Shown one piece after another: positions 2,248 to 58,541 of a DNA stretch of 64,000 bases (positions within the stretch are counted from its first letter, which is position 1; every line of letters starts with the position of its first letter). The stretch spans positions 45,168 through 109,167 of the forward strand of contig JAAYBX010000025.1 of NCBI GenBank assembly GCA_012729955.1. The letters run 5' to 3'. This stretch comes from Clostridiaceae bacterium (GTDB taxonomy: Bacteria; Bacillota; Clostridia; DUPQ01). The notes below the pieces were generated by a model. It made no database searches. It worked only from the letters and a program-made list of their open reading frames with translations, and had not been told where the DNA came from. The translations under genes were made by a program, and so were the position numbers.

Positions 2248-2730
2248 ATGGATTATACAATACAGAAGCTTAATACTGATACGTTTAAACTTATTGAAAA
2301 TCTCAGGGGACATATTAAAGAAGATGAGGATTTTATTGAACGCTGTAAACGTGTTCAGGATAAAAAAGATGACTGTTATGCGGTATTTATAAACAATGAA
2401 TGCATAGCTGATGTCACAGTAACATATAAATCTGAAGATAAAGCGGCAACAGTTGAAAACCAAAGAGCTTATCTGTCAGGATTATTTGTGAAAGAGGATT
2501 ACAGGAATAAAAAGATAGCAACTGTACTAATAAAGCATCTGATAGAACAGTTATCTGTGAATGGATATAAAGAATTATCTGTTCTTGTTGATAGCGAGAA
2601 TGCAGCTGCATGCTCACTATATTCCAAGCTCGGTTTCGAATGGGAAAAGACTTACAAAGTAGATGAATGGTCTTTCGATTTGCTGATATACCGGATTAAT
2701 AAATTTGGAGCAATATACAATTCCTATTGA
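2248..2730 (+). CDS. GNAT family N-acetyltransferase
   Basis: 160 aa. GNAT acetyl-CoA motif region (IATVLIKHLIEQL...SLYSKLGFE). Confidence 0.7.
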   Translation: MDYTIQKLNTDTFKLIENLRGHIKEDEDFIERCKRVQDKKDDCYAVFINNECIADVTVTYKSEDKAATVENQRAYLSGLFVKEDYRNKKIATVLIKHLIEQLSVNGYKELSVLVDSENAAACSLYSKLGFEWEKTYKVDEWSFDLLIYRINKFGAIYNSY

Positions 2731-2784
2731 CTTAGTAGGAATATATATATATGATTTTAATATAACTGTGAAAGGATACAGAAA

Positions 2785-4140
2785 ATGAACAATAAACAGC
2801 TTGTACTTGACGCCATAATGAATAAACAGACAGAAAGAGCTCCCTGGGTGCCATTCGTAGGATGCCATGCGGCTTCACTATTAGAAAATGTCACTGCTGA
2901 AATGTTTTTTAAAGATAGCGACCTCATAGTTGAAGGAGTTAAAAAAGCAGTAGACCTTTACAGGCCTGATGGTATTCCTGTTCTTTTCGATCTGCAGCTT
3001 GAAGCAGAAGCTCTGGGCTGCAAATTAAGATATGCCAAGGATAATCCGCCTTCTGTGGTAACTCATCCGCTTGAAGATGGTGTAAAGCTTGAACAGCTGA
3101 AGATCCCTACTGTTAATGATGGAAGATTCAAGCTGGTAATGGAGTCTGCAAAAAGATTATGTGAAGAACTTGGAAATGATATTGCAATGTACGGACTTAT
3201 AACTGGACCTTATACACTTGCATTACACCTTATGGGAACGGAAATATTCTATGAAATGATAGATGATCCGGACCATGTCATGGAAGTTTTGGATTTCTGT
3301 AAGGATGTATGTATAGCATGCGCAGACATGTATATTGATGCAGGCTGTGACATCATAGCAGTTGTTGATCCTATGACAAGCCAGATTTCACCAGACAGTT
3401 TTGAGGAATTTGTATTGCCATATGCTGTCGAGATATTTGACCATATAAGAACCAGAAACAGGCTTTCATCCTTGTTTGTTTGCGGAGACGCTAAGAAGAA
3501 CATTGAAGTTATGAGCCGTTGCAAATGTGACAATATATCAATTGATGAGAATATTCCTCTTGAGTATGTCATTGACATATGCAAAAAGAGGGGAGTATCT
3601 GTAGGTGGAAATATCAAGCTTACAGTTACAATGCTTTTTGGATCAGTACAGGATAATATTAATGATGCTTTAAACTGTATGAGTATTGGTGGGACAAAAG
3701 GATATATATTATCTCCTGGCTGTGACATGCCATATGCAACACCGGTTGAAAACGTTCTTGCTATTGCAGCAGTTGCCCATGGAGAAATGCCAGAATCAAT
3801 CGTGAGCGAGTCTGCTCTTGACGGTATTGTTGTTGAGTTACCTGACTATAAAGCCGAGAAAAAAGTAATAATAGACGTTATTACACTTGATTCAGCTTCA
3901 TGTGCTCCATGCCAGTATATGATGGAAGCTGTCAAAGCTGCCTGTGAAGGATTATCTGATAAAGTCGCTTATGTAGAACACAAGATAAAAGACAAAGAAT
4001 CGGTTGTATTCATGATGAAGCTTGGAGTATCAAACATACCCACAATAGTTATCGATGGACAGATTAAGTACATAAGCCTTGTTCCAAGTGTCAAGGAATT
4101 AAGAGAAACTATTTTAAAGGCAGTTGAATTAAAGAAATAA
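2785..4140 (+). CDS. Uroporphyrinogen-decarboxylase (URO-D) family methyltransferase (MtaA/CmuA-like) fused to a C-terminal thioredoxin-like (CxxC) domain
   Basis: About 345 aa carry a URO-D/MtaA-like fold (VPFVGCHAASLLE, GYILSPGCDMPYATP). The C-terminal ~95 aa resemble redox-active disulfide protein 2 / thioredoxin fold (SCAPCQ ... IPTIVIDGQ). Confidence 0.7.
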   Translation: MNNKQLVLDAIMNKQTERAPWVPFVGCHAASLLENVTAEMFFKDSDLIVEGVKKAVDLYRPDGIPVLFDLQLEAEALGCKLRYAKDNPPSVVTHPLEDGVKLEQLKIPTVNDGRFKLVMESAKRLCEELGNDIAMYGLITGPYTLALHLMGTEIFYEMIDDPDHVMEVLDFCKDVCIACADMYIDAGCDIIAVVDPMTSQISPDSFEEFVLPYAVEIFDHIRTRNRLSSLFVCGDAKKNIEVMSRCKCDNISIDENIPLEYVIDICKKRGVSVGGNIKLTVTMLFGSVQDNINDALNCMSIGGTKGYILSPGCDMPYATPVENVLAIAAVAHGEMPESIVSESALDGIVVELPDYKAEKKVIIDVITLDSASCAPCQYMMEAVKAACEGLSDKVAYVEHKIKDKESVVFMMKLGVSNIPTIVIDGQIKYISLVPSVKELRETILKAVELKK

Positions 4141-4409
4141 TGACAGTACAACTGGTTGAAATGAAAAATCCATGTCAGTCGTGTATAATCGTCAGCGATC
4201 TGATGATCAGTTTATTTGAGAAAATTAAGCCTGAATACCCTGATGTGGATTTTATCATAACAATAATTGAGAAACCTGAAGAAATACGAAAGATACAAGG
4301 TCTGGAAGTAGAGATTTTTCCAGCAGTTTTAATAAATGATGAACAGATAACCTGCGGGAATATTCTTCATAGAAGACAGTTGAAATCATATATAGATATT
4401 AGGAGATGA
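4140..4409 (+). CDS. Small thioredoxin-fold protein (redox-active disulfide protein 2-like), paralog of the upstream C-terminal domain
   Basis: 89 aa. N-terminal CQSC and FPAVLINDEQ motif. ATGA start/stop overlap with the upstream gene. Confidence 0.6.
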   Translation: MTVQLVEMKNPCQSCIIVSDLMISLFEKIKPEYPDVDFIITIIEKPEEIRKIQGLEVEIFPAVLINDEQITCGNILHRRQLKSYIDIRR

Positions 4410-4410
4410 C

Positions 4411-5508
4411 ATGGAAAAGACAAAAGTCGCGGTTATCGGAGGATTTTTAGGATCTGGCAAGACAACCCTTATACTGAATCTTGCAAAAAGCCTTATAGAG
4501 CAAGGTAAAACAGTTGGTATAGTCACTAATGACCAGGGAAGTGATCTTATAGATGCAAGATTCCTTAAGGCAAATGGGCTGGATGTTATGTCAGTAAAGG
4601 GTAAATGCTTTTGCTGTTTTTTTGACGAACTCGCATCGAAACTAGTTCAATTTAAAGATCAAAAGGCAGTGGATGTTTTATTGCTGGAGCCAGTAGGTTC
4701 CGCAATTAACCTTGTAGCAACCATATTCAAACCCTTTATTAATGACAGAGCTGTAATGCTTAAGTCATTTAATGAAGGTTATGCTTTATCTCCACTTGTT
4801 GTTCTTGCAGATCCAAAACGGGTAAGGCAGCTAATGCTAAGCGATACTAACAGTAATTATATGACACCGGTATCATATCTGTTTTCCAAGCAATTGGAAG
4901 AAGCCGATTTGATACTGATTAATAAACGCGACATGATATCAGAATCAGAACAGCTTGAGCTTTCCGAATTTCTAAAGAGGAAATATAAAAACACTGACGT
5001 AAAATGCATATCAGCACTGCAGAGTGAATACATAAGTGATGTTAGGAATTTCGTTATAAATGGCTCATTTATAGAAAGAACTGGAATAGATGTCGATTAC
5101 ACGAAATTCAAAAATATCGAATCTTCTTTAAGCTGGTTGAATTCCAATGCCTTCATAAGATATGATGAAGACGCTGATGTTAATTTATTGATGGATGAAT
5201 ATATGTTAACTGTCAGTAAGGAACTGGTTAAGTCAGGTTGCTCTATAGCGCACATGAAATGCTATGCGGTGGCAGATAATGATTTCTATAAAGCAAGCGT
5301 TACCTCTGATGACGGTGAAATATCAAAAAGCAATGAAATGACCTTTAAACATGATGCATTCAATATAATTATAAATGCAAGGATATCATCTTCACCTACA
5401 GTCCTAAAAGAGATAGTTGAAGGTAATTTGCGTGAAATATTTAATCCTCAGTCTGTTAACACTGAGTGTTTTTCTCCGAAATACCCCAGACCGGACTACT
5501 GCGACTAA
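4411..5508 (+). CDS. COG0523 / CobW-family G3E GTPase metallochaperone
   Basis: Walker A GGFLGSGKTT, CxCC metal motif (KCFCCF), and NKRD-like INKRD G4 motif. 365 aa. Starts 2 nt after the upstream stop. Confidence 0.85.
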   Translation: MEKTKVAVIGGFLGSGKTTLILNLAKSLIEQGKTVGIVTNDQGSDLIDARFLKANGLDVMSVKGKCFCCFFDELASKLVQFKDQKAVDVLLLEPVGSAINLVATIFKPFINDRAVMLKSFNEGYALSPLVVLADPKRVRQLMLSDTNSNYMTPVSYLFSKQLEEADLILINKRDMISESEQLELSEFLKRKYKNTDVKCISALQSEYISDVRNFVINGSFIERTGIDVDYTKFKNIESSLSWLNSNAFIRYDEDADVNLLMDEYMLTVSKELVKSGCSIAHMKCYAVADNDFYKASVTSDDGEISKSNEMTFKHDAFNIIINARISSSPTVLKEIVEGNLREIFNPQSVNTECFSPKYPRPDYCD

Positions 5509-11040: not shown

Positions 11041-11755
11041 TACTGCTTTATTTGAAAAGTCCATGGCCAGAAGCAGGACAAATGCACAGCAGATAATCGA
11101 AAAAGGATTTGTCAGGGTTAATAATAGAGTTATACTAAAACCTTCATATCCTGTTGATCTTGGGAAAGATAATATAGAATCGGATTATCATGAAAAGTAT
11201 GTCAGCAGGGGAGCATATAAGCTTTTACAGGCATTTGATGTATTTAAAATAAACATTGAGGGTATGACTGTGCTGGATGCAGGAGCATCTACTGGAGGTT
11301 TTACCCAGGTGCTGCTCGAAAAAGGAGCGAATAAGGTATATTCTGTGGATGTGGGAAGCAACCAGATGGATGCTTCAGTTAAAAGTGACAGCAGGGTATT
11401 ATGCATGGAGAATACTGATATAAGAAACATCGATATGTATATACAAGACAATTATTTCGAGTTCGCTACATGTGACCTGTCCTTTATATCCATAGATAAA
11501 ACCTCATCAAGCATCTATAAGGTAATGAAAAAAGGAGCGAAAGCTGTTTTTCTTATTAAACCGCAATTTGAGGCTGGAAAGCAGAATATTGGCAAGAAGG
11601 GCATAGTAAAAGATGAGCAGATAAGAAAAAACTGCGTAGAGAATATAAAAAATCATCTTACTTCAATAGGTTTCAAGTATTTAGGACTGACTGAATGCGT
11701 ATTAAAAGGTGGAAGCGGGAATACTGAGTATCTTATCTATATAGAAAAGGCATAG
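11024..11755 (+). CDS. tlyA: TlyA family rRNA 2'-O-methyltransferase (S4 + FtsJ domains)
   Basis: VRVNNRVILKPSYPV and RGAYKL motifs. The true start is probably a few codons later (overlaps the dxs 3' end). Confidence 0.85.
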   Translation: MMKRLDTALFEKSMARSRTNAQQIIEKGFVRVNNRVILKPSYPVDLGKDNIESDYHEKYVSRGAYKLLQAFDVFKINIEGMTVLDAGASTGGFTQVLLEKGANKVYSVDVGSNQMDASVKSDSRVLCMENTDIRNIDMYIQDNYFEFATCDLSFISIDKTSSSIYKVMKKGAKAVFLIKPQFEAGKQNIGKKGIVKDEQIRKNCVENIKNHLTSIGFKYLGLTECVLKGGSGNTEYLIYIEKA

Positions 11756-13116
11756 ATTTTTGATTTGAACATTTCAAACCTAATCCTGTAAGAGCATTCT
11801 TTTAGGTCATTCAAACTGCTTTTCCCATTCCATGATACTGCCTGCCATATTTTATTACTGTCAAGTTTATCGCATGAATCAGATTCAAATCCAGGTATTT
11901 CCTCGCAGGTATTCCTGTCAACAATGGATGCTTTAATCCATCCGCCATACGGTATATGCGCATTAATCATTAGCTTGTCACTCTGTATATCAAGCTTTAT
12001 TGTATAGAATCCTCCTAATTCATCAGCAGTAACCGATGTAAATCCGTCTTCACGTATGACAGCCCTTCTGTACTGTCCGCTCTGTTTAATCCTAATATCG
12101 GGAGGTATGTTATGGGCATTTGGGTTTGCATCAACATAGAATGACCATGTGCCATCCTCATTATCAATAATGCCTTTTGTTGAAGACAGCCTTAAGTCTT
12201 TTTCTTTATATGATGTCCGATCTATGTAAGGCTGCTGCCCCATAGGTCGGTACCATATAATTCCGTCACGACTGGTCAGCAGATGGATATCAAAGGTGTC
12301 TGATGTCCTTTTATATACATCCATTAGCATTATATGGGCGTTCTTTGCCCCTGGCCATTTGTGATATCCTGATGTGTAATAATCCCAGTCTGGGGGATCA
12401 TTTGGATCATTATGCATAATCATGACCGGCTCGTCAAAATCAGAAAAAGTACTGCTCTTTGATAAAGAAACAGATCTTCTCGGAACAGGGTAATCCACAC
12501 ACTGGCGAGTATATATAAGATACTGTTTTGTATCTTCATCGTATTCCAGTATGTTCTGAGTATCAGAAGGATTATTGAGAAGAGGTTTTTCAATATCATT
12601 CCAGTGAATTCCGTCTGCAGATACAGCACCATGTATCGAGCATCCTTGAAAAAATGGTTTTTCACGATTGTATTGAACCCATATCAGCTTATACCTTTGC
12701 GATATATCAGCATGTTTGTCATACAGTACGCATGTTCCATGTACATTTTTAATCAGATTATTATTGTAATCATTATTGAATGGCATAATATGCAAATCAG
12801 GTTTAACAAAATTGACTCCATCATCAGATTCGGCGTATGCAAGATTACTTTTCATGTCATCCATTGAAGCTTCTGAAAAAACCTCATACCAGACTTTTAC
12901 TTTATTCTCTATCTTTATGAAAGTAGCATATGCATTAATACAGGAGCTTTCCCATGGTTTATCTGGTATAAGCACGGGCTTTTCCTCTAAAAAAGGTTTA
13001 TGTGTTTCAATCTTTATACCATAAGGAGATATAACAGGTGTTTTTGAATATGGCCAGACAGTTCCGTATCCAGGTTCCACACACGACCAATCAACGAATA
13101 CATATTTGTTTTCCAT
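11737..13116 (-). CDS. Hypothetical protein, possibly a beta-propeller glycoside-hydrolase-like enzyme (family unresolved)
   Basis: 459-aa ORF with good coding texture and no recognisable signal peptide. Rich in W/Y/D residues as in GH32/43/130-type folds. The only minus-strand gene in the first 30 kb. Confidence 0.45.
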   Translation of the reverse strand: MENKYVFVDWSCVEPGYGTVWPYSKTPVISPYGIKIETHKPFLEEKPVLIPDKPWESSCINAYATFIKIENKVKVWYEVFSEASMDDMKSNLAYAESDDGVNFVKPDLHIMPFNNDYNNNLIKNVHGTCVLYDKHADISQRYKLIWVQYNREKPFFQGCSIHGAVSADGIHWNDIEKPLLNNPSDTQNILEYDEDTKQYLIYTRQCVDYPVPRRSVSLSKSSTFSDFDEPVMIMHNDPNDPPDWDYYTSGYHKWPGAKNAHIMLMDVYKRTSDTFDIHLLTSRDGIIWYRPMGQQPYIDRTSYKEKDLRLSSTKGIIDNEDGTWSFYVDANPNAHNIPPDIRIKQSGQYRRAVIREDGFTSVTADELGGFYTIKLDIQSDKLMINAHIPYGGWIKASIVDRNTCEEIPGFESDSCDKLDSNKIWQAVSWNGKSSLNDLKECSYRIRFEMFKSKIYAFSI

Positions 13117-14392: not shown

Positions 14393-14468
14393 AGGGAAGT
14401 AGTTCAATCGGTAGAGCAGCGGTCTCCAAAACCGTTTGTTGCGGGTTCAAATCCTGTCTTCCCTGCCA
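14393..14468 (+). tRNA. trnW: tRNA-Trp (anticodon CCA)
   Basis: Manually folded cloverleaf. Acceptor stem AGGGAAG/CTTCCCT, anticodon stem GCGGT/ACCGT, loop CTCCAAA, T-loop TTCAAAT, encoded CCA end. Confidence 0.85.
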
Positions 14469-37419: not shown

Positions 37420-37548
37420 ATTGGAACTTATCAAGAGTGGCTGAGAGACTGGCTCAATGACGCCCGGCAACCTGCAATGTAAAGGTGCTAATTCCAAACA
37501 GATGAGGTAATAACAGGTCTCATCAAGAGGCCTTTTTTATAGCAAAGG
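37420..37548 (+). promoter_or_regulatory. SAM-I (S-box) riboswitch with intrinsic terminator
   Basis: CTTATCAAGAG...GGCTCAATGA...CCCGGCAACC...GGTGCTAATTCC consensus blocks, then GGTCTCATCAAGAGGCC hairpin + T6. Directly upstream of metK. Confidence 0.85.
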
Positions 37549-37557
37549 AGAAATTAT

Positions 37558-38721
37558 ATGAGTTTTAGAAAATTATTTACATCTGAATCAGTAACAGAAG
37601 GACATCCGGACAAACTGTGCGATCAGATTTCTGATGCAATCCTTGACGAGATACTTAGAAAAGACAAACAGGCAAGAGTTGCATGTGAGACAGCAGTAAC
37701 GACAGGATTAATTCATGTGATGGGCGAGATAACTACAGACTGTTATGTGGACATTTCAAAAATTGCAAGAGAGACAGCTCTGTCAGTAGGATACACTAGA
37801 GCAAAATTCGGTTTTGATGGAGAAACTTGCGGGGTCATCACCTCTATTAATGAGCAGTCACCTGACATTGCTATGGGTGTGAACAGTTCATATGACATAA
37901 TTGGAGAACAAGGTGCAGGGGATCAGGGAATGATGTTCGGATTTGCATGTGATGAAACAGCAGAACTTATGCCTTATCCCATACAGACAGCCCACAATTT
38001 ATGCAAAAAGCTTTCAAAAGTCAGAAAGGAGAGTAATCATAAATATCTCAGACCAGACGGAAAAAGTCAGGTTACTGTAGAATATGAAGGATATATTCCC
38101 AAAAGAATTGATACTATTGTATTATCATCTCAGCACAGTGATGAAATATCCATTGAAGAATTGAGAGAATACTTGACAAAAGAGGTTATCATGCCAGCAG
38201 TCGATAAAGATATGATAGACAGTAAAACCAAGATTTACATTAATCCGACTGGGAGATTTGTTATCGGAGGGCCTATGGGTGATTCCGGATTAACTGGCCG
38301 AAAGATAATTGTTGATACATATGGAGGTATGGGGCGTCATGGAGGAGGTGCTTTCTCAGGTAAAGATCCTTCAAAAGTGGATCGCTCTGCAGCATATGCT
38401 GCAAGGTATGCAGCGAAAAATGTTGTTGCAAGCGGTATAGCGAAAAGATGCGAAATCCAGATAGCATATGCAATAGGTATGGCACGGCCAGTCTCTGTTG
38501 TGGTGGATACATTCGGAACTGCTTTAATTGATGATGAGCTTATAGCAAAAGCGGTGATGCAGGTATTCGATCTTCGACCACATTCAATTATAGAATCGCT
38601 TGATCTTAAGAATCCTATTTACAAGCAGACAGCAGCATATGGGCACTTTGGAAGATCTGATTTGAATCTGCCCTGGGAGAAGACTGACAAAGCGGAAATT
38701 TTGAGGGACATGCTTAAATAA
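37558..38721 (+). CDS. metK: S-adenosylmethionine synthetase
   Basis: 387 aa. [19 protein letters not shown]; GGGAFSGKD. Confidence 0.95.
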
Positions 38722-49789: not shown

Positions 49790-49867
49790 TGTGCCTGTAT
49801 TGACATACAATGAATTGATGGTATAATACTCTCAATATGGCGTTACAAGAAGGATGAGTAACATGTA

Positions 49868-50068
49868 TTTTGTGATAAAGAGAGAGGGGAGCGGTGAGAA
49901 CCCTTGCAAGGATATATGTGAAAGCTAGCCTTTGAAGCCTTCCGCAAAACGGAACGTACTCCTGCGTTAAAGGTTTAAGAGCTTTCAAGAGAATGTATTC
50001 TATTATGAAAGAATTTGGGTGGTACCGCGTGATAACTCTCGTCCCTTTACAGGATGGGAGTTTTTTAT
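49868..50068 (+). promoter_or_regulatory. T-box leader (tRNA-Ala-responsive) with terminator
   Basis: Stem I AGAGAG / GGTGAGA elements. Probable GCU specifier (AAAGCUAG). Canonical T-box AATTTGGGTGGTACCGCG, then a terminator hairpin + T7, immediately before alaS. Confidence 0.8.
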
Positions 50069-50098
50069 ATACAATATACTAGGAATAAGGTGAAAAAA

Positions 50099-52693
50099 AT
50101 GGAGAAATTATCATTAAACACATTAAGAGAGGAATATCTGAAATTTTTTGAAAGCAAAGGTCATCTGAGACTGAAGAGTTTTTCACTAGTCCCTCTGGAT
50201 GATCCTTCCATACTTTTAATCAATGCAGGCATGACGCCTTTAAAGCCATACTTTACCGGTGCTGTGGAACCGCCGTCAAAAAGGATAACTACCTGTCAGA
50301 AGTGTATAAGGACATTAGATATTGACCGTGTAGGTATTACAACAAGGCATGGTACTTTTTTCGAAATGCTGGGTAATTTTTCCTTTGGAGACTATTTCAA
50401 GGAAGAAGCGATACAGTGGTCCTGGGAATTCTTTACCGAAGTTCTGTTATTGGATAAGAATCGTCTTTATGCATCTGTTTATGAAGAAGATGATGAAGCA
50501 TATGATATCTGGAAAAATATTGTGAAAATGGATGAAAACCACATAGTAAGGCTTGGTAAAGAAGACAACTTCTGGGAACATGGCATCGGGCCTTGCGGAC
50601 CATGCTCTGAAATTTACTATGACAGAGGTGAAGATAAGGGATGCGGTTCTAAAGACTGTAAAGTAGGCTGTGACTGTGACAGATTTGTTGAAGTATGGAA
50701 TAATGTTTTTACACAGTTTGACAAACAGGAAGATGGAAGCTATAAGCCTCTTAAAAATAAAAATATAGATACTGGTATGGGATTGGAAAGACTGGCATGT
50801 GTAGTACAAGGAGTAGATTCACTGTTTGAAGTAGACACTATTAAGCAAATACTTGATACTGTCTGCCATGTTACAGGTACAGTATACGGAAAGAACAAAA
50901 CAAAAGATATTTCCATACGTGTTATTACTGATCACATCAGAAGCTCGGTTATGATGATTTCTGATGGCATTATACCTTCAAATGAAGGAAGAGGATATGT
51001 GTTGAGAAGGCTGTTAAGGAGAGCATCAAGACATGGACGGCTTTTAGGAAAAGAAGATGTTTTTCTTGCTGGGCTGACTGATGTGGTTATAAGCAATTCA
51101 AAGATTGCATATCCTGAACTTGAAGAGAAGAAGGATTATATTTACAAAGTCGTACAAAGCGAGGAATCTAAATTTATAAATACTATTGAAAGCGGGATGA
51201 CAATCCTGAACCAGTACCTTGAACAGGCAAAAAATGATAAAAAAGATGTTCTTGCAGGTGAGCATATTTTCAAACTTCATGACACATATGGGTTTCCATA
51301 TGACCTTACTAGGGAAATAGCTTTTGAGAGAGGTTTCAAACTGGACAAAGACGGGTTTGATGTGTGTATGCAGAATCAGAAGAAAACTGCAAGAGATGCA
51401 AAGAAAGCTAATGAAGGTTCTGCTTGGCAGAATGATGAAAATGTATATAAAAATCTATCCAAAACAAAGTTTTTGGGCTATGACAAGCTAGTAACTCAGG
51501 CAGAAGTTTTATCTTTTATACAGAAAGATGAAACAGTTGAAGTAGTAACTGATAAGACTGTATTCTATGCAGAAGGTGGCGGACAGCAGGCTGATGCTGG
51601 GTATATATGTAATAATAACGCTAAGATGAAGGTTATAAATGTAGTGAGCAAAGAAGGTATCTGCATTCACACAGGAGTAATGGAAAAAGGCATTTTTTAT
51701 AAAGGAGATATAGTTACTTCCTATGTGGATGAGAATAGAAGAAGAGCTACTGAACGCAATCACACAGCAACACATATGCTTCAATATGCGCTTAGGGAAG
51801 TTCTAGGGAATCATGTACATCAGGCTGGTTCATACGTTGATCATCAAAGGTTACGATTCGACTTTACTCATTTCTCTGCTATGGATGAGGAGCAGATATT
51901 GAAAGTTCAAAGCATAGTTAACAGTATGGTCCTGAAAGATATTGATGTTGTTAAGGAAGTCATGGATATAGATACAGCTAAGAAAAAAGGAGCTACAGCA
52001 TTATTCGGAGAGAAATACTCTAAGCAAGTACGTGTTGTATCTATTAATCCTTACAGTATGGAATTATGCGGAGGCACACATCTTTCAAGAACAGGAGAAA
52101 CAGGTCTTTTTAAAATTGTTTCTGAGAATGCAGTCGCATCCGGTGTAAGAAGGATAGAAGCATTAACAGGGACAAATGCGATAGAACATATGCAAAAACA
52201 GGAAGATATTGTAAATCAGCTTTCAAAAATGCTTAAAGGAACTGATGTTATATCTAAAGTAGAAAATCTTTCCTCTTCGATTAAGGAATTAAAAAAAGAA
52301 AATGCTGAGCTTAAGAATAAACTATCTTCTTCTGAGGTAAAGGATGTATTAAGCGTATTCGAACAGTATAAGGGTATAAAGATAGTTTCTTCTGTAATTG
52401 AAAATGCAGATATGTCAGTTCTTAGAAACCTGTCAGACAAAGCACGTGAGAGATATGATGACTGTGTCGCGGTATTTGTCTCAACTGGTGAGAAAGTTTC
52501 AATGGTAGTAGCTGCAACAAAAGTAGCTGTTGAAAAGGGTATTAAAGCGAATCTTGTAATTAAAGAAGCAGCTGCTCTGATAGGAGGTTCGGGTGGCGGA
52601 AGGCCGGAGATGGCTCAGGCAGGAGGAAAAGATTCAGACAAAGCCCATGATGCTCTTAAAAAGGCAATAGAACTAATCAAGGAGGCACTGTAA
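50099..52693 (+). CDS. alaS: Alanine--tRNA ligase
   Basis: Start moved to MEKLSLNTLREEYL downstream of the T-box terminator. Class II motifs, C-terminal DHHA1 (GGSGGGRP). Confidence 0.95.
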   Translation: MEKLSLNTLREEYLKFFESKGHLRLKSFSLVPLDDPSILLINAGMTPLKPYFTGAVEPPSKRITTCQKCIRTLDIDRVGITTRHGTFFEMLGNFSFGDYFKEEAIQWSWEFFTEVLLLDKNRLYASVYEEDDEAYDIWKNIVKMDENHIVRLGKEDNFWEHGIGPCGPCSEIYYDRGEDKGCGSKDCKVGCDCDRFVEVWNNVFTQFDKQEDGSYKPLKNKNIDTGMGLERLACVVQGVDSLFEVDTIKQILDTVCHVTGTVYGKNKTKDISIRVITDHIRSSVMMISDGIIPSNEGRGYVLRRLLRRASRHGRLLGKEDVFLAGLTDVVISNSKIAYPELEEKKDYIYKVVQSEESKFINTIESGMTILNQYLEQAKNDKKDVLAGEHIFKLHDTYGFPYDLTREIAFERGFKLDKDGFDVCMQNQKKTARDAKKANEGSAWQNDENVYKNLSKTKFLGYDKLVTQAEVLSFIQKDETVEVVTDKTVFYAEGGGQQADAGYICNNNAKMKVINVVSKEGICIHTGVMEKGIFYKGDIVTSYVDENRRRATERNHTATHMLQYALREVLGNHVHQAGSYVDHQRLRFDFTHFSAMDEEQILKVQSIVNSMVLKDIDVVKEVMDIDTAKKKGATALFGEKYSKQVRVVSINPYSMELCGGTHLSRTGETGLFKIVSENAVASGVRRIEALTGTNAIEHMQKQEDIVNQLSKMLKGTDVISKVENLSSSIKELKKENAELKNKLSSSEVKDVLSVFEQYKGIKIVSSVIENADMSVLRNLSDKARERYDDCVAVFVSTGEKVSMVVAATKVAVEKGIKANLVIKEAAALIGGSGGGRPEMAQAGGKDSDKAHDALKKAIELIKEAL

Positions 52694-56305: not shown

Positions 56306-56385
56306 TGTTGAAAAGAAAGTAGAAATAGAGTAACATACACATGATAAGCCCATGAAAGGAGAAAGGGTAAATACCCTGAAATATT

Positions 56386-57357
56386 ATGAATAAAGTACGA
56401 GTCGGATTATATGGTATTAACGGACATCAGATACATAATCAGATGATTAACCACGATAAAGCTGAAGTTACTGCTATCTCTATGATAGACAAAGAAAAAC
56501 TTCCAAAAGAACTTATAACGGATGATGTTACGTTCTATGAGGATTTTGATTCTCTGATTAATGCAAAAAATGTAGATGTTGTATCTATATGCGCTCCAAA
56601 AAGAATAGACCAGAAAAATCTAGCGATTAAAGCCATGCTTGCAGGCAAGCATGTTTACAGTGAAAAGCCTTGCGCTTATACAGAAGCAGAACTGGATGAA
56701 ATACTGCAGGTATCTGAAAAAACCGGCATGCTTTTTCATGAAATGGCTGGATCTGCGTTTGATGAACCTTTTATTTCAGTTACTGAAATTATTAAATCCG
56801 GACGTATTGGCGAGATCGTGCAGGTTTTTGCTCAGAAGTCATACCCTTTCAAGACTTCAGCAGGCAGGCCTCAGGATGACATAACTGATGGCGGGCTTAT
56901 ACGTTGGATAGCTGTTCATGCAGCAAGATTCATTGAACATACAACAGGCTTGAAAATTAAGGACATATATGCAATGGAAACCAGACATGGAAATCCAGTA
57001 AAAGATGGAGATTTAAAGATGGCTGCAAGCCTGATGTTTTCACTAGATAATAACGCAGTGGGATGCATCGTTTCAAATTATCTTAACATGAATAATTTCC
57101 CGACATGGGGTAATGAGCATTTAAGAGTATGGGGTACAAATGGGTTTGTTGAGATAACAGACGGACTGACAAAAACAAGGCTGGTGACTCCAGATTATGA
57201 CGGTCCCGTCGAGATCAAGCATAAATCTATTGACTACTTTGACTTCTTTATAGATGAAATACTATATAACAAGCCGATGCCTTTAACATTGGAAGAAGAG
57301 CTGCATCCGTTAAGAGCAGTAATCAGAGCTCAGGAAAAAGCCATGGAGGTTGAATAA
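56386..57357 (+). CDS. Gfo/Idh/MocA family oxidoreductase
   Basis: Rossmann N-terminus (VRVGLYGINGHQIH), EKP motif. Confidence 0.8.
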   Translation: MNKVRVGLYGINGHQIHNQMINHDKAEVTAISMIDKEKLPKELITDDVTFYEDFDSLINAKNVDVVSICAPKRIDQKNLAIKAMLAGKHVYSEKPCAYTEAELDEILQVSEKTGMLFHEMAGSAFDEPFISVTEIIKSGRIGEIVQVFAQKSYPFKTSAGRPQDDITDGGLIRWIAVHAARFIEHTTGLKIKDIYAMETRHGNPVKDGDLKMAASLMFSLDNNAVGCIVSNYLNMNNFPTWGNEHLRVWGTNGFVEITDGLTKTRLVTPDYDGPVEIKHKSIDYFDFFIDEILYNKPMPLTLEEELHPLRAVIRAQEKAMEVE

Positions 57358-58541
57358 TGAAAATTGTAGTAGTGGGCATAGGCGGTTATGGAGAAATAGT
57401 TCTTAACGGGTTATTTGCAAATCCTGACAAACTGGATTTCACTATTGAAGGATATGTTGCTCCAAGACCCAAAGACAATGATTACTCAAAAAGGCTACAT
57501 GAGATGGGTGCAGAAAGATATATCACTTTGGAAGATTTCTATGAAAAGAAACATGCTGATCTTGCTGTCATATCCAGTCCGATTGAATTTCATATGCCGC
57601 AGACAATCTTATGCTTAAGCCATAATACAGCTGTTATGTGCGAAAAACCTGTTGCTGGAACAATACAGGACGCATATGCAATGAAGAAGGCTGAAGACTC
57701 TTCGGCCGCCTTTGTTGGTATAGGATACCAGTGGTCATATTCAGATGCGATTATTAATCTTAAGAAAGACATACTATCTGGTATGTATGGAAAACCTACA
57801 AGATTAAAGAATATAGTGCTTTGGCCAAGAACTCAGAGATATTTTAAGCGGAACAGCTGGGCAGGAATGATAAAGAATGATTCAGGATATTGGATTTTGG
57901 ATTCTGTAGCCAATAATGCCACTGCCCATTATATTCATAACATGTTCTTTGTCTTGGGTGATAGTCTGAAGAGCAGCGCGTGGCCTAAAACTATACAGGC
58001 GAATATTTACAGAGCGAATGATATTGAAAATTATGACACATGCGTTTCCAGGATAATTACGCAAAATGATGTTGAAATACTATATTATGCGAGTCATTCG
58101 ACTGAAACTAAATGCGAACCTCTTTTAGATTTTCAATTTGAAAAAGGAGAGATATATGCTGATTTCAATAAGGAAAAGTGTATATATGGCAAAGTAGATG
58201 GCAAGATAATTTCATACGGGAATCCTTTTGATGTTGAGATGAAGAAAGTGTTTGACTGTATAAGGACAATCAAGGGTAACGACGTTAATTATTGTCCGAT
58301 AGATGCAGCAATACCTCAGCTTAAAACAATTAATGCGATCAGTCAGTATTATGATATTAATCAGATAGCACCGGATAAACTGGGATTCTTGGATGCTGAA
58401 GAGAATACTACCAAATTAGTTTATGTCAAAGGCCTGTATCAAGACATGATGAAAGCATATAGCGAGGGCAGGATTCTTGATGAGTCTTCTAAAGTTATTG
58501 ATATTACCGGATATGACCATTTTGAAAATATTAAACAATAG
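57357..58541 (+). CDS. Gfo/Idh/MocA family oxidoreductase (second copy)
   Basis: MKIVVVGIGGYGEIV Rossmann start, EKP motif. Start overlaps the upstream stop. Confidence 0.8.
   Translation: MKIVVVGIGGYGEIVLNGLFANPDKLDFTIEGYVAPRPKDNDYSKRLHEMGAERYITLEDFYEKKHADLAVISSPIEFHMPQTILCLSHNTAVMCEKPVAGTIQDAYAMKKAEDSSAAFVGIGYQWSYSDAIINLKKDILSGMYGKPTRLKNIVLWPRTQRYFKRNSWAGMIKNDSGYWILDSVANNATAHYIHNMFFVLGDSLKSSAWPKTIQANIYRANDIENYDTCVSRIITQNDVEILYYASHSTETKCEPLLDFQFEKGEIYADFNKEKCIYGKVDGKIISYGNPFDVEMKKVFDCIRTIKGNDVNYCPIDAAIPQLKTINAISQYYDINQIAPDKLGFLDAEENTTKLVYVKGLYQDMMKAYSEGRILDESSKVIDITGYDHFENIKQ

Follow-up and report, generated by a model that had tools for sequence, protein, structure and literature searches.

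A conserved gene trio encoding an MtaA-like URO-D protein with a fused thioredoxin domain, a small thioredoxin-like protein and a COG0523-type GTPase

The second-methyl-transfer (MT2) enzymes MtaA, MtbA and MtsA of Methanosarcina (4AY7) have a URO-D-type barrel, and their genes are often unlinked from those of their first methyltransferase (MT1) and corrinoid partners. A bacterial protein with the same barrel is encoded by the first gene, g1, of a trio at positions 2785-5508 of a 64-kb stretch of DNA from a Clostridiaceae bacterium (contig JAAYBX010000025.1); the whole stretch is called the window here. The second gene, g2, encodes a small thioredoxin-like protein and the third, g3, a GTPase of the COG0523 type. 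Like many of the archaeal genes, g1 is unlinked from such partners in the window. The Cys of PGC, the Glu of IDE, and the GC and PSVxxHP motifs are common to g1 and the archaeal enzymes, but compared to MtaA g1 has a Phe instead of the His of the HxC motif, two extra invariant histidines (H28 and H148) and a CxxC thioredoxin domain fused to its C-terminal end. The host of g1 is moreover a bacterium, where coenzyme M is not expected. The trio is probably a corrinoid-dependent methyltransferase of the MT2 (MtaA-like) type which carries its own maturation equipment, with helpers for metal loading and thiol redox, and which forms a distinct and widespread subfamily.

The linkage between COG0523 proteins and corrinoid methyltransferases is in itself already known (Haas et al. 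2009, PMC2770081). The genes of COG0523 'subfamily 13' lie beside mtaA, mtaB, mtaC and ramM in Methanosarcina, a link noted for Clostridium botulinum and D. hafniense as well (PMC2770081). In Desulfofundulus kuznetsovii and D. salinus the methanol methyltransferase operon contains a gene for a 'cobalamin synthesis protein P47K' (CobW family) as well as URO-D genes, and the proteins of this operon increase on methanol (PMC11206085, PMC5770442). The subfamily 13 and P47K proteins are, like g3, G3E GTPases with CxCC whose genes have mtaA-like, mtaB, mtaC or ram genes as neighbours, and their presumed role, like that of g3, is metallocentre assembly. g3 is a separate branch without the Pfam CobW_C domain, with C-domain motifs of its own and always with g2 ahead of it.

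MtaA/MtbA-like proteins (Mlps) with a His-Cys-Cys site are also found in the type 1 mlp clusters, in which Mlp2 and Mlp3 are accompanied by a corrinoid protein and the activase RACE (Kountz and Balskus 2023, preprint, PMC10418091). No tetrahydrofolate methylase is present in these clusters, and methyl-sulfur or methyl-selenium substrates have been proposed for them, with the sulfur or selenium compound as acceptor or donor (PMC10418091). They resemble the clusters around g1 relatives in combining such proteins with a corrinoid protein and an activase in non-methanogenic anaerobes. The thioredoxin fusion and the GTPase, both present in the trio, are unreported there (PMC10418091), and the window has no corrinoid protein, RACE or further Mlps, although relatives of g1 do have such neighbours. 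In acetogens, MtaA is a 29.7-kDa methyl-CoP:tetrahydrofolate methyltransferase (PMC13391211), and this small size suggests a different, tetrahydrofolate-type family; the same paper describes MTII enzymes as either shareable among MTI enzymes or solitary. The thioredoxin-like parts of the trio have the minimal fold of about 80 residues, with CxxC and cis-Pro, of the MTH895/ArsE-type proteins (Thioredoxin_3, TIGR00412; 1NHO, 1FO5), but in the trio one of the two copies is joined to a methyltransferase barrel and the second is locked into an operon with a GTPase. No description of a URO-D-thioredoxin fusion or of the g2/g3 pair was found in the literature.

Family, fold and active site of the trio proteins

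The three open reading frames are located on the plus strand exactly where the original prediction had placed them, and its domain calls (a URO-D/MtaA-type barrel, thioredoxin-like parts and a COG0523 protein with CxCC) were borne out by Pfam and hidden Markov model (HMM) searches. The 451-residue g1 (2785-4140) is a URO-D/MtaA-like TIM barrel (residues 1 to about 340) followed by a CxxC thioredoxin-like domain (residues about 360-451). Pfam URO-D covers residues 4-332 (E 5e-65), and the best NCBIfam models are MtaA/CmuA, MtaA and MtbA with 150-181 bits, as compared to 89 bits for HemE. A word-indexed protein search with g1 scored 5,962 proteins at E <= 1e-10, and the best 120 relatives are all about 450 residues long and 61-99% identical. 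The HMM scores and the hundreds of full-length homologues place the trio genes far beyond chance.

The g1 family is widespread and not an oddity of the window genome. In a scan with one genome for each species, relatives turned up in at least 596 species, with identities of 50-70% over Clostridia, Bacteroidota, Planctomycetota, Verrucomicrobiota and others, and still 50-55% between phyla. Among the Clostridia it occurs in Christensenella, Robinsoniella, Cellulosilyticum, Caldanaerobius, Herbinix and C. estertheticum, and outside them in Planctomycetota, Verrucomicrobiota, Lentisphaerota, Bacteroidota (Prolixibacteraceae and relatives) and Aminicenantes, as well as in one Chlamydiae metagenome-assembled genome (MAG) and the gammaproteobacterium Neiella. 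The genome closest to the window is 'Firmicutes bacterium ADurb.Bin146', with a 92% identical g1 and the same synteny.

The AlphaFold model of g1 is confident, with a predicted local distance difference test (pLDDT) score of 90.5 and a predicted template-modelling score (pTM) of 0.85. Its best solved match in Foldseek is MtaA of Methanosarcina mazei (4ay7; TM 0.91 on the target, root-mean-square deviation (rmsd) 2.1 A, 24% identity), followed by uroporphyrinogen decarboxylases (UROD, TM about 0.80), ApcE and MetE. In 74 full-length members H28, C79, H94, H148, F231, C233, E255, C313, D314, C376 and P419 are invariant. Profile alignment places the zinc motif LHICGN of MtaA on FFVCGN in g1, so that the Cys is retained while the His is replaced by F231. 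C233, E255 and C313 align with the Cys, the Glu (SVEE/SIDE) and the Cys (PGC) of the MtaA/MetE type, and C79 (GC) and H94 (PSVxxHP) are common to g1 and MtaA. The idea of a zinc-dependent MtaA-type enzyme, put forward in the original prediction, needs qualification in view of the lost HxC His and of a score below the MtaA/CmuA cut-off.

Four g1 residues (H28, D69, H148 and C313) fall on motif positions of plant UROD in the profile alignment. In the numbering of human UROD, H28 corresponds to Arg41 (AGRY), D69 to Asp86 (FSDIL), H148 to Tyr164 and C313 to His339, all of which are established active-site positions of UROD. Asp86 is the catalytic residue, and MtaA has a Cys there. Since the HxC His is a Phe in g1, a replacement His has to be sought elsewhere in the barrel, and the metal site may be a remodelled Cys2 + His (+ Glu) site with the His coming from another barrel element. 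C27 was tried as replacement ligand and rejected, because it is a Cys in just 53 of the 74 sequences, and C298 (Cys in 70/74), which aligns to an outer helix, is also unlikely to be a ligand. Short URO-D paralogs of about 340 residues adjoin g1 in other genomes, and 12 of 16 keep the canonical HxC, which argues that g1 is a distinct subfamily and not a degenerate copy.

The thioredoxin-like domain of g1 (3862-4137, plus strand; motif TLDSxSC373APC376QY, cis-Pro P419) matches Pfam Thioredoxin_3 at residues 370-443 (E 3e-8, 33.9 bits) with the motif S-C373-A-P-C376-Q, and the similarity to the thioredoxin fold is thereby clear. C373 is a Cys in 73 of the 74 members, and C376 and P419 are conserved in all. 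The family profile matches the archaeal thioredoxins 1nho (E 7.9e-5) and 1fo5 (E 6.2e-4), and the order of elements in the model, beta-alpha-beta-alpha-beta-beta-alpha, is the one expected for this fold.

The stand-alone protein g2 (4140-4409, plus strand, 89 residues) has a P-C-x-x-C motif, here P-C-Q-S-C, and EVExxP with the cis-Pro. Its Thioredoxin_3 match is marginally above the cut-off (E 1e-5, 25.8 bits against 24.8), and both the g1 domain (34.2 bits) and g2 (20.1 bits) miss the TIGR00412 cut-off of 62 bits. PCxxC and EVExxP are invariant in an alignment of 23 g2 orthologues. The family is tiny, with 27 representatives among 1.84e9 in a single-sequence phmmer search. All are stand-alone proteins, and the possibility of g2 being a Rosetta stone fused to other proteins was thereby rejected. 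The description of g2 as a paralog of the thioredoxin domain in g1 holds at the family level only; a direct BLASTP comparison of the two was not significant (E 0.76). The NCBIfam scan of the trio also showed a weak family-level likeness to the HUIPC seleno-thioredoxin and CobW-related selenoprotein models. A selenium link as such was rejected, as these matches are weak and nothing specific was found in the literature, and selenide was kept as a possible acceptor.

In other phyla (Bacteroidota and Planctomycetota) g1 is often a variant of about 540 residues with two Thioredoxin_3 domains according to Pfam. The second of these has a weak hhalign match to g2 (E 1e-4, probability 57%), and by position and fold g2 and the fused second domain are a fusion/fission pair. 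The fused copy is often without CxxC, which favours a role of this module as an adaptor.

The GTPase g3 (4411-5508, plus strand, 365 residues) is a divergent G3E GTPase of the COG0523 type, in which the Pfam cobW nucleotide-binding domain covers residues 6-185 (E 2.5e-27). The N-domain (residues 1 to about 200) holds Walker A (GxxGxGKTT), NDQ, K-C66-F-C68-C69-F, EPVGS and NKxD (INKRD in the window), and both the CxCC motif C66-F67-C68-C69 and the residues G14, G16, K17, T18, T19, E93, G96 and D174 are invariant in 26 homologues. No Pfam match to CobW_C (PF07683) was found, which leaves about 165 C-terminal residues without a Pfam domain; this C-domain (residues about 200-365) is family specific, with conserved DIDY, LGWLN, IAHLK and INAR. 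The model has a pLDDT of 86.6, and its best fold match in Foldseek is E. coli YjiA, over about 370 columns which comprise both domains but at an rmsd of 21 A. Thereafter come HypB, UreG and MeaB, and MMAA is also among the matches. The g3 homologues P0168, P0205, P0208 and P0219 have poly-Cys tails (GCCCCG, YCCCCK, QCCNCR and SCCCCKKNSCCS), which resemble, with Cys in place of His, the His-rich tails known from other COG0523 proteins; the g3 of the window has no such tail.

Gene neighbourhoods of the relatives

From the best 80 genome matches, 77 genomic neighbourhoods (loci, numbered L0xx) with a full-length g1 were obtained. A G3E GTPase is encoded at most two genes from g1 in 57 of these, in several phyla, so the co-occurrence of the URO-D gene with COG0523 and thioredoxin genes anticipated in the original prediction was indeed found. 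Two GTPase types adjoin g1. The g3 type (356-435 residues, mostly about 360-390, with its own C-domain) occurs in 20 loci, which all belong to Clostridia-like genomes. When six-frame translations were searched with an HMM, the g2 gene was detected in all 20 and in 23 loci in total; in three of the 23 it is present without this GTPase. The classical short COG0523 type, with about 300 residues and both cobW and CobW_C, follows g1 in Bacteroidota, Planctomycetota and others, where a second thioredoxin domain is often fused to g1, and in some Clostridia it is encoded ahead of g1. In L010, L012 and L081 g1 is flanked by both types. In the reverse comparison, g3 homologues with at least 37% identity are always encoded directly after g1-g2 (L081-L087), and those at 33-34% identity have unrelated neighbours. 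The operon locking, the gene fusion and the conservation across phyla together point to g1 as one specific client of the GTPase, and to g2 as a specific adaptor.

The original prediction described the trio as a self-contained unit, which does not agree with the surroundings of its relatives when individual clusters are viewed at ±6-10 kb. Recurrent neighbours of g1 according to Pfam are corrinoid proteins (B12-binding and B12-binding_2), AraC or PocR-AraC regulators and, as a third type, either the reductive activase RACo or a small Met_synt_B12 protein resembling the MetH activation domain; MtaB or URO-D paralogs are found there as well. Four relatives viewed on long contigs have corrinoid proteins and MtaB or URO-D paralogs, and in addition RACo, PocR-AraC regulators or both. 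A corrinoid protein is encoded within 7 kb of g1 in 29 of the 77 loci. In Cellulosilyticum sp. I15G10I2 (L081) the order is RACo, an MtaC-like corrinoid protein, PocR/AraC, DUF2284, CobT, MtaB (PF12176), short COG0523, g1, g2, g3, PocR/AraC, a flavoprotein and cobamide-synthesis genes, and CobT, CbiA/CobQ and CobD genes adjoin the trio in this cluster. From the corrinoid protein to the second regulator the order is identical in L010 and L012, with a fragment of the RACo-containing cluster ahead of it, and the MtaB there scores E 1.7e-170. In Cellulosilyticum, g1 thus fills the MtaA slot of a methanol MtaB/MtaC cluster, and it is the only MT2 candidate in the MtaB clusters of L010, L012 and L081. 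In L082-L086, of which L086 is a Clostridium estertheticum isolate, the trio is accompanied by a corrinoid protein, by other URO-D paralogs and by RACo, PocR/AraC or both. No pterin-binding (tetrahydrofolate) methyltransferase was found in the Pfam-annotated clusters L081-L086.

A different arrangement is seen in Carboxylicivirga sediminis (L072:3608-9980), where AraC, a RhaT-family transporter, a URO-D paralog and the mutarotase RhaM are followed by a corrinoid protein, g1, a classical COG0523 and a Met_synt_B12-like protein. The URO-D paralog has HxC with the His at the second ligand position. The related cluster in L052 contains a partial open reading frame of the same protein cluster as the RhaT of L072, two URO-D paralogs, a protein of the RhaM cluster, a Zn-dependent alcohol dehydrogenase, a corrinoid protein, g1, COG0523 and a Met_synt_B12-like protein. 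Judged by its genes, a cluster of the L072 type seems to serve the corrinoid-dependent demethylation of an O-methylated deoxy-hexose without oxygen. We found no description in the literature of such a cluster or of corrinoid-dependent demethylation of methyl-sugars.

Some neighbourhoods contain genes of other kinds. In the Clostridiales MAGs L033, L034, L035 and L039, g1 (in L039 an uncalled tblastn match only) is located between an FGGY sugar/glycerol kinase and a GlpA-like flavin adenine dinucleotide (FAD) dehydrogenase with a BFD [2Fe-2S] domain. In Robinsoniella (L027, L028 and L030) the short COG0523 gene is separated from g1 by a gene for a lipoate-protein ligase, genes for an AIM24-family protein and an extracytoplasmic function (ECF)-type sigma factor follow, and a hydantoinase-like gene and a second URO-D paralog are found upstream on the opposite strand. 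Small proteins with DUF2284 (predicted metal-binding), DUF1638 or DUF6951 recur in the corrinoid clusters around the trio (L081:5489-6040; L010, L012, L016 and L020; L082:9034-9681; L086:3924-4235) and may be further accessory factors.

The trio locus and its surroundings in the window

The genes of the trio are tightly packed. At the g1/g2 junction, for which an ATGA overlap at 4140 had been proposed, the sequence is TAATG, and the TAA stop and the ATG start overlap by 1 nucleotide. The supposed 2-nucleotide gap between g2 and g3 is a spacer of 1 nucleotide, as the TGA stop of g2 ends at 4409 and the ATG of g3 begins at 4411. A ribosome-binding site for g3, AGGAG at 4401-4405 (plus strand), was read directly from the sequence within the 3' end of g2. 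With the overlap, the spacer and this AGGAG, the packing is compatible with translational coupling, as originally suggested. A consensus scan found a promoter-like TTGACT-17 nucleotides-TATGAT (2727-2755, plus strand), a consensus match alone with 10 of 12 positions matching, in the 54-nucleotide gap between the upstream GNAT gene and g1, and it is followed by the g1 ribosome-binding site AAAGGA (2771-2776, plus strand). A 7-bp inverted repeat, ATTCCTA-N9-TAGGAAT (2720-2742), spans the GNAT stop codon and the -35-like hexamer and could form a weak hairpin or act as an operator. Neither a cobalamin riboswitch nor another RNA element was found at the trio operon.

Upstream of the trio are genes for an AP_endonuc_2-fold protein, an M24 peptidase and the GNAT protein, and downstream are Asp23 and AmaP (Pfam and NCBIfam), beyond which open reading frames resemble nusB, xseA, xseB, ispA, dxs and tlyA by reading alone, no domain scan having been applied to them. 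A horizontal-transfer island was considered and rejected, as the fraction of G+C in the trio, 0.36-0.37, equals that of the surroundings and the flanks are housekeeping genes. No URO-D protein besides g1 was found in the 64 kb. A second URO-D gene at 56380-58541 was rejected when the phmmer match was traced to a chain-clustered member that is not URO-D; by eye, without a Pfam scan, the open reading frames there look like Gfo/Idh/MocA-type oxidoreductases. Elsewhere in the window there is a 459-residue open reading frame (11737-13116, minus strand) that converges with the tlyA-like gene and matches no Pfam family at E <= 1e-5, and a tRNA at 14393-14465. An S-adenosylmethionine (SAM) riboswitch (37425-37508) is located directly upstream of metK (37558-38721), and a T-box leader (49834-50049) precedes an 879-residue open reading frame (50054-52693) that resembles alaS by reading, without a Pfam scan.

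Proposed role, alternatives and significance

The relatives inside B12-dependent methyl-transfer clusters suggest that the trio is probably a shared second-step enzyme unit, and the partners missing from the window are most likely encoded elsewhere in its genome, in line with the unlinked mtaA of Methanosarcina. In the mechanism that we propose, a substrate-specific MT1, either MtaB or a canonical URO-D paralog, would load a corrinoid protein encoded outside the window, and the methylated corrinoid protein would donate its methyl group to g1. g1 would hand it on to a soft nucleophile on a Cys/His-ligated metal site, probably zinc. The putative ligands are C233, C313 and E255, together with a His contributed by a different barrel element. 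The metal would be loaded by g3 as a dedicated chaperone, with the use of GTP and its CxCC site. The CxxC domain of g1 and g2 may keep the Cys ligands or a thiol substrate reduced, or they may dock g3 to the barrel or relay the metal between the two. Cys-rich zinc sites, such as those of BHMT and MetE, lose zinc upon oxidation. Candidate acceptors would be sulfide, a thiol, selenide or homocysteine, with tetrahydrofolate less likely; sulfide, a thiol (homocysteine) or selenide is favoured because of the soft ligands, the thioredoxin modules and the full clusters without a tetrahydrofolate methyltransferase. A methyltransferase metallated by a chaperone and maintained by thiol redox, the idea of the original prediction, thus stays the best reading of the trio.

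Several observations weigh against this reading. The HxC zinc-ligand His is a Phe in all 74 g1 members, and g1 is below every curated NCBIfam cut-off: 176.5 against 235.4 bits for TIGR01463, 162.3 against 400 for NF040654 (the MtaA equivalog) and 150.3 against 600 for MtbA. Taken together, F231 and these scores mean that the chemistry of g1 may differ from that of MtaA. H28 or H148 may be the replacement ligand, a suggestion that comes only from the UROD active-site positions on which they fall in the alignment. That the second, fused thioredoxin domain often lacks CxxC counts against a universal redox role of that module. No GTPase is found near g1 in 20 of the 77 loci, and no corrinoid protein within 7 kb in 48. 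As originally predicted, there is no corrinoid protein or MT1 partner near the trio, and this holds for all 64 kb of the window, where no homologues of corrinoid proteins, RACo, Met_synt_B12-like (MetH-activation-like) proteins, MtaB, CobT or DUF2284 were detectable; the MtaC and MtaB partners of the bacterial methanol methyltransferase system are thus both absent from it. In L033-L035 and L039 neither GTPase, g2 nor corrinoid protein is found within the contig, which is a misfit to the methyl-transfer picture.

It is conceivable, if rather doubtful, that the role of g1 can be narrowed down further to a methyl-corrinoid:sulfide, thiol, homocysteine or selenide methyltransferase, i.e. a tetrahydrofolate-independent methyl sink of anaerobes that are neither acetogens nor methanogens, with a hitherto unrecognised COG0523 branch and the g2 adaptor metallating g1 alone. 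If this is true, fermenters in at least seven phyla would strip methyl groups from methanol and O-methylated sugars, the sugars being included because the Bacteroidota clusters hold the RhaT transporter, the RhaM mutarotase and a URO-D paralog.

Enzymes of the URO-D family can work on either side of the corrinoid protein, and in MtsA a single subunit carries out both half-reactions (cited in PMC10418091). An unlikely alternative is that g1 is a substrate-side MT1, like MtsA or CmuA, which demethylates a small sulfur, selenium or halide compound and loads the corrinoid protein, with the thioredoxins handling the thiol or selenol. The soft, Cys-rich site with its additional CxxC would suit such a substrate, as would the weak NCBIfam similarity to seleno-variants of the thioredoxin and CobW families; related Mlp clusters are proposed to demethylate methyl-sulfur and methyl-selenium compounds, and ClMlp2 acts on selenide (PMC10418091). 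However, the MT1 role is already filled by MtaB in the MtaB clusters, with g1 as the sole second-step candidate, and the sugar-type clusters carry a separate URO-D paralog with the canonical HxC. The extreme conservation of g1 across phyla beside varied MT1 candidates is also a better fit to a shared MT2.

It is somewhat less likely still that the GTPase and the thioredoxin-like proteins serve the corrinoid side, by delivering cobalt or cobamide or loading the cofactor in the manner of MeaB or CobW, and not the metal of g1. In the window and in L087, g2-g3 directly follow g1 although no corrinoid or cob gene is nearby, the thioredoxin module is fused to g1 and not to corrinoid proteins, and CxCC is a site for metal ions and not for cobamides, with the zinc-binding YjiA as the best fold match of g3. 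Still, the G3E GTPases include CobW (cobalt, B12 synthesis) and MeaB (B12 handling), both MeaB and MMAA are among the g3 fold matches, the Cellulosilyticum trio adjoins the CobT, CbiA/CobQ and CobD genes, and the Desulfofundulus gene is annotated as a cobalamin synthesis protein. The least probable explanation is that g1 is not a methyltransferase but a remodelled URO-D barrel for other chemistry (decarboxylation or a thiol-dependent reaction) with the thioredoxin domains as redox partner. In its favour, F231 replaces the zinc His, D69 sits where UROD has its catalytic Asp and MtaA a Cys, the MtaA/CmuA cut-offs are missed, many loci including the window have no corrinoid genes nearby, and in L033-L035 and L039 g1 is part of a glycerol-type cluster. 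Against it, g1 is clearly nearer to MtaA than to UROD (176-181 against 89 bits; TM 0.91 against about 0.80), retains the Cys, Glu and Cys of the MtaA type and fills the MtaA slot in MtaB/MtaC clusters. The share of loci in which a corrinoid protein is encoded at most 7 kb away, 29 of 77, is moreover judged, without a measured background rate, to be far above that of a random gene.

To our knowledge, very few COG0523 metallochaperones have an identified client. The trio nominates one client, g1, and an adaptor, g2, for an uncharacterised COG0523 branch, and this chaperone-client pair is directly testable, also in cultured isolates (Clostridium estertheticum, Cellulosilyticum sp. I15G10I2, Christensenella tenuis and Robinsoniella peoriensis). 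Several bacterial corrinoid clusters without a tetrahydrofolate methyltransferase have no MT2 candidate other than the g1 family, and g1 may be the second-step enzyme of tetrahydrofolate-independent bacterial corrinoid pathways. The acceptor of g1 would reveal the fate of the methyl groups which anaerobes other than methanogens and acetogens take from methanol, and possibly also from methylated sugars, with a bearing on the cycling of methanethiol, methionine and selenium in guts, digesters and sediments.

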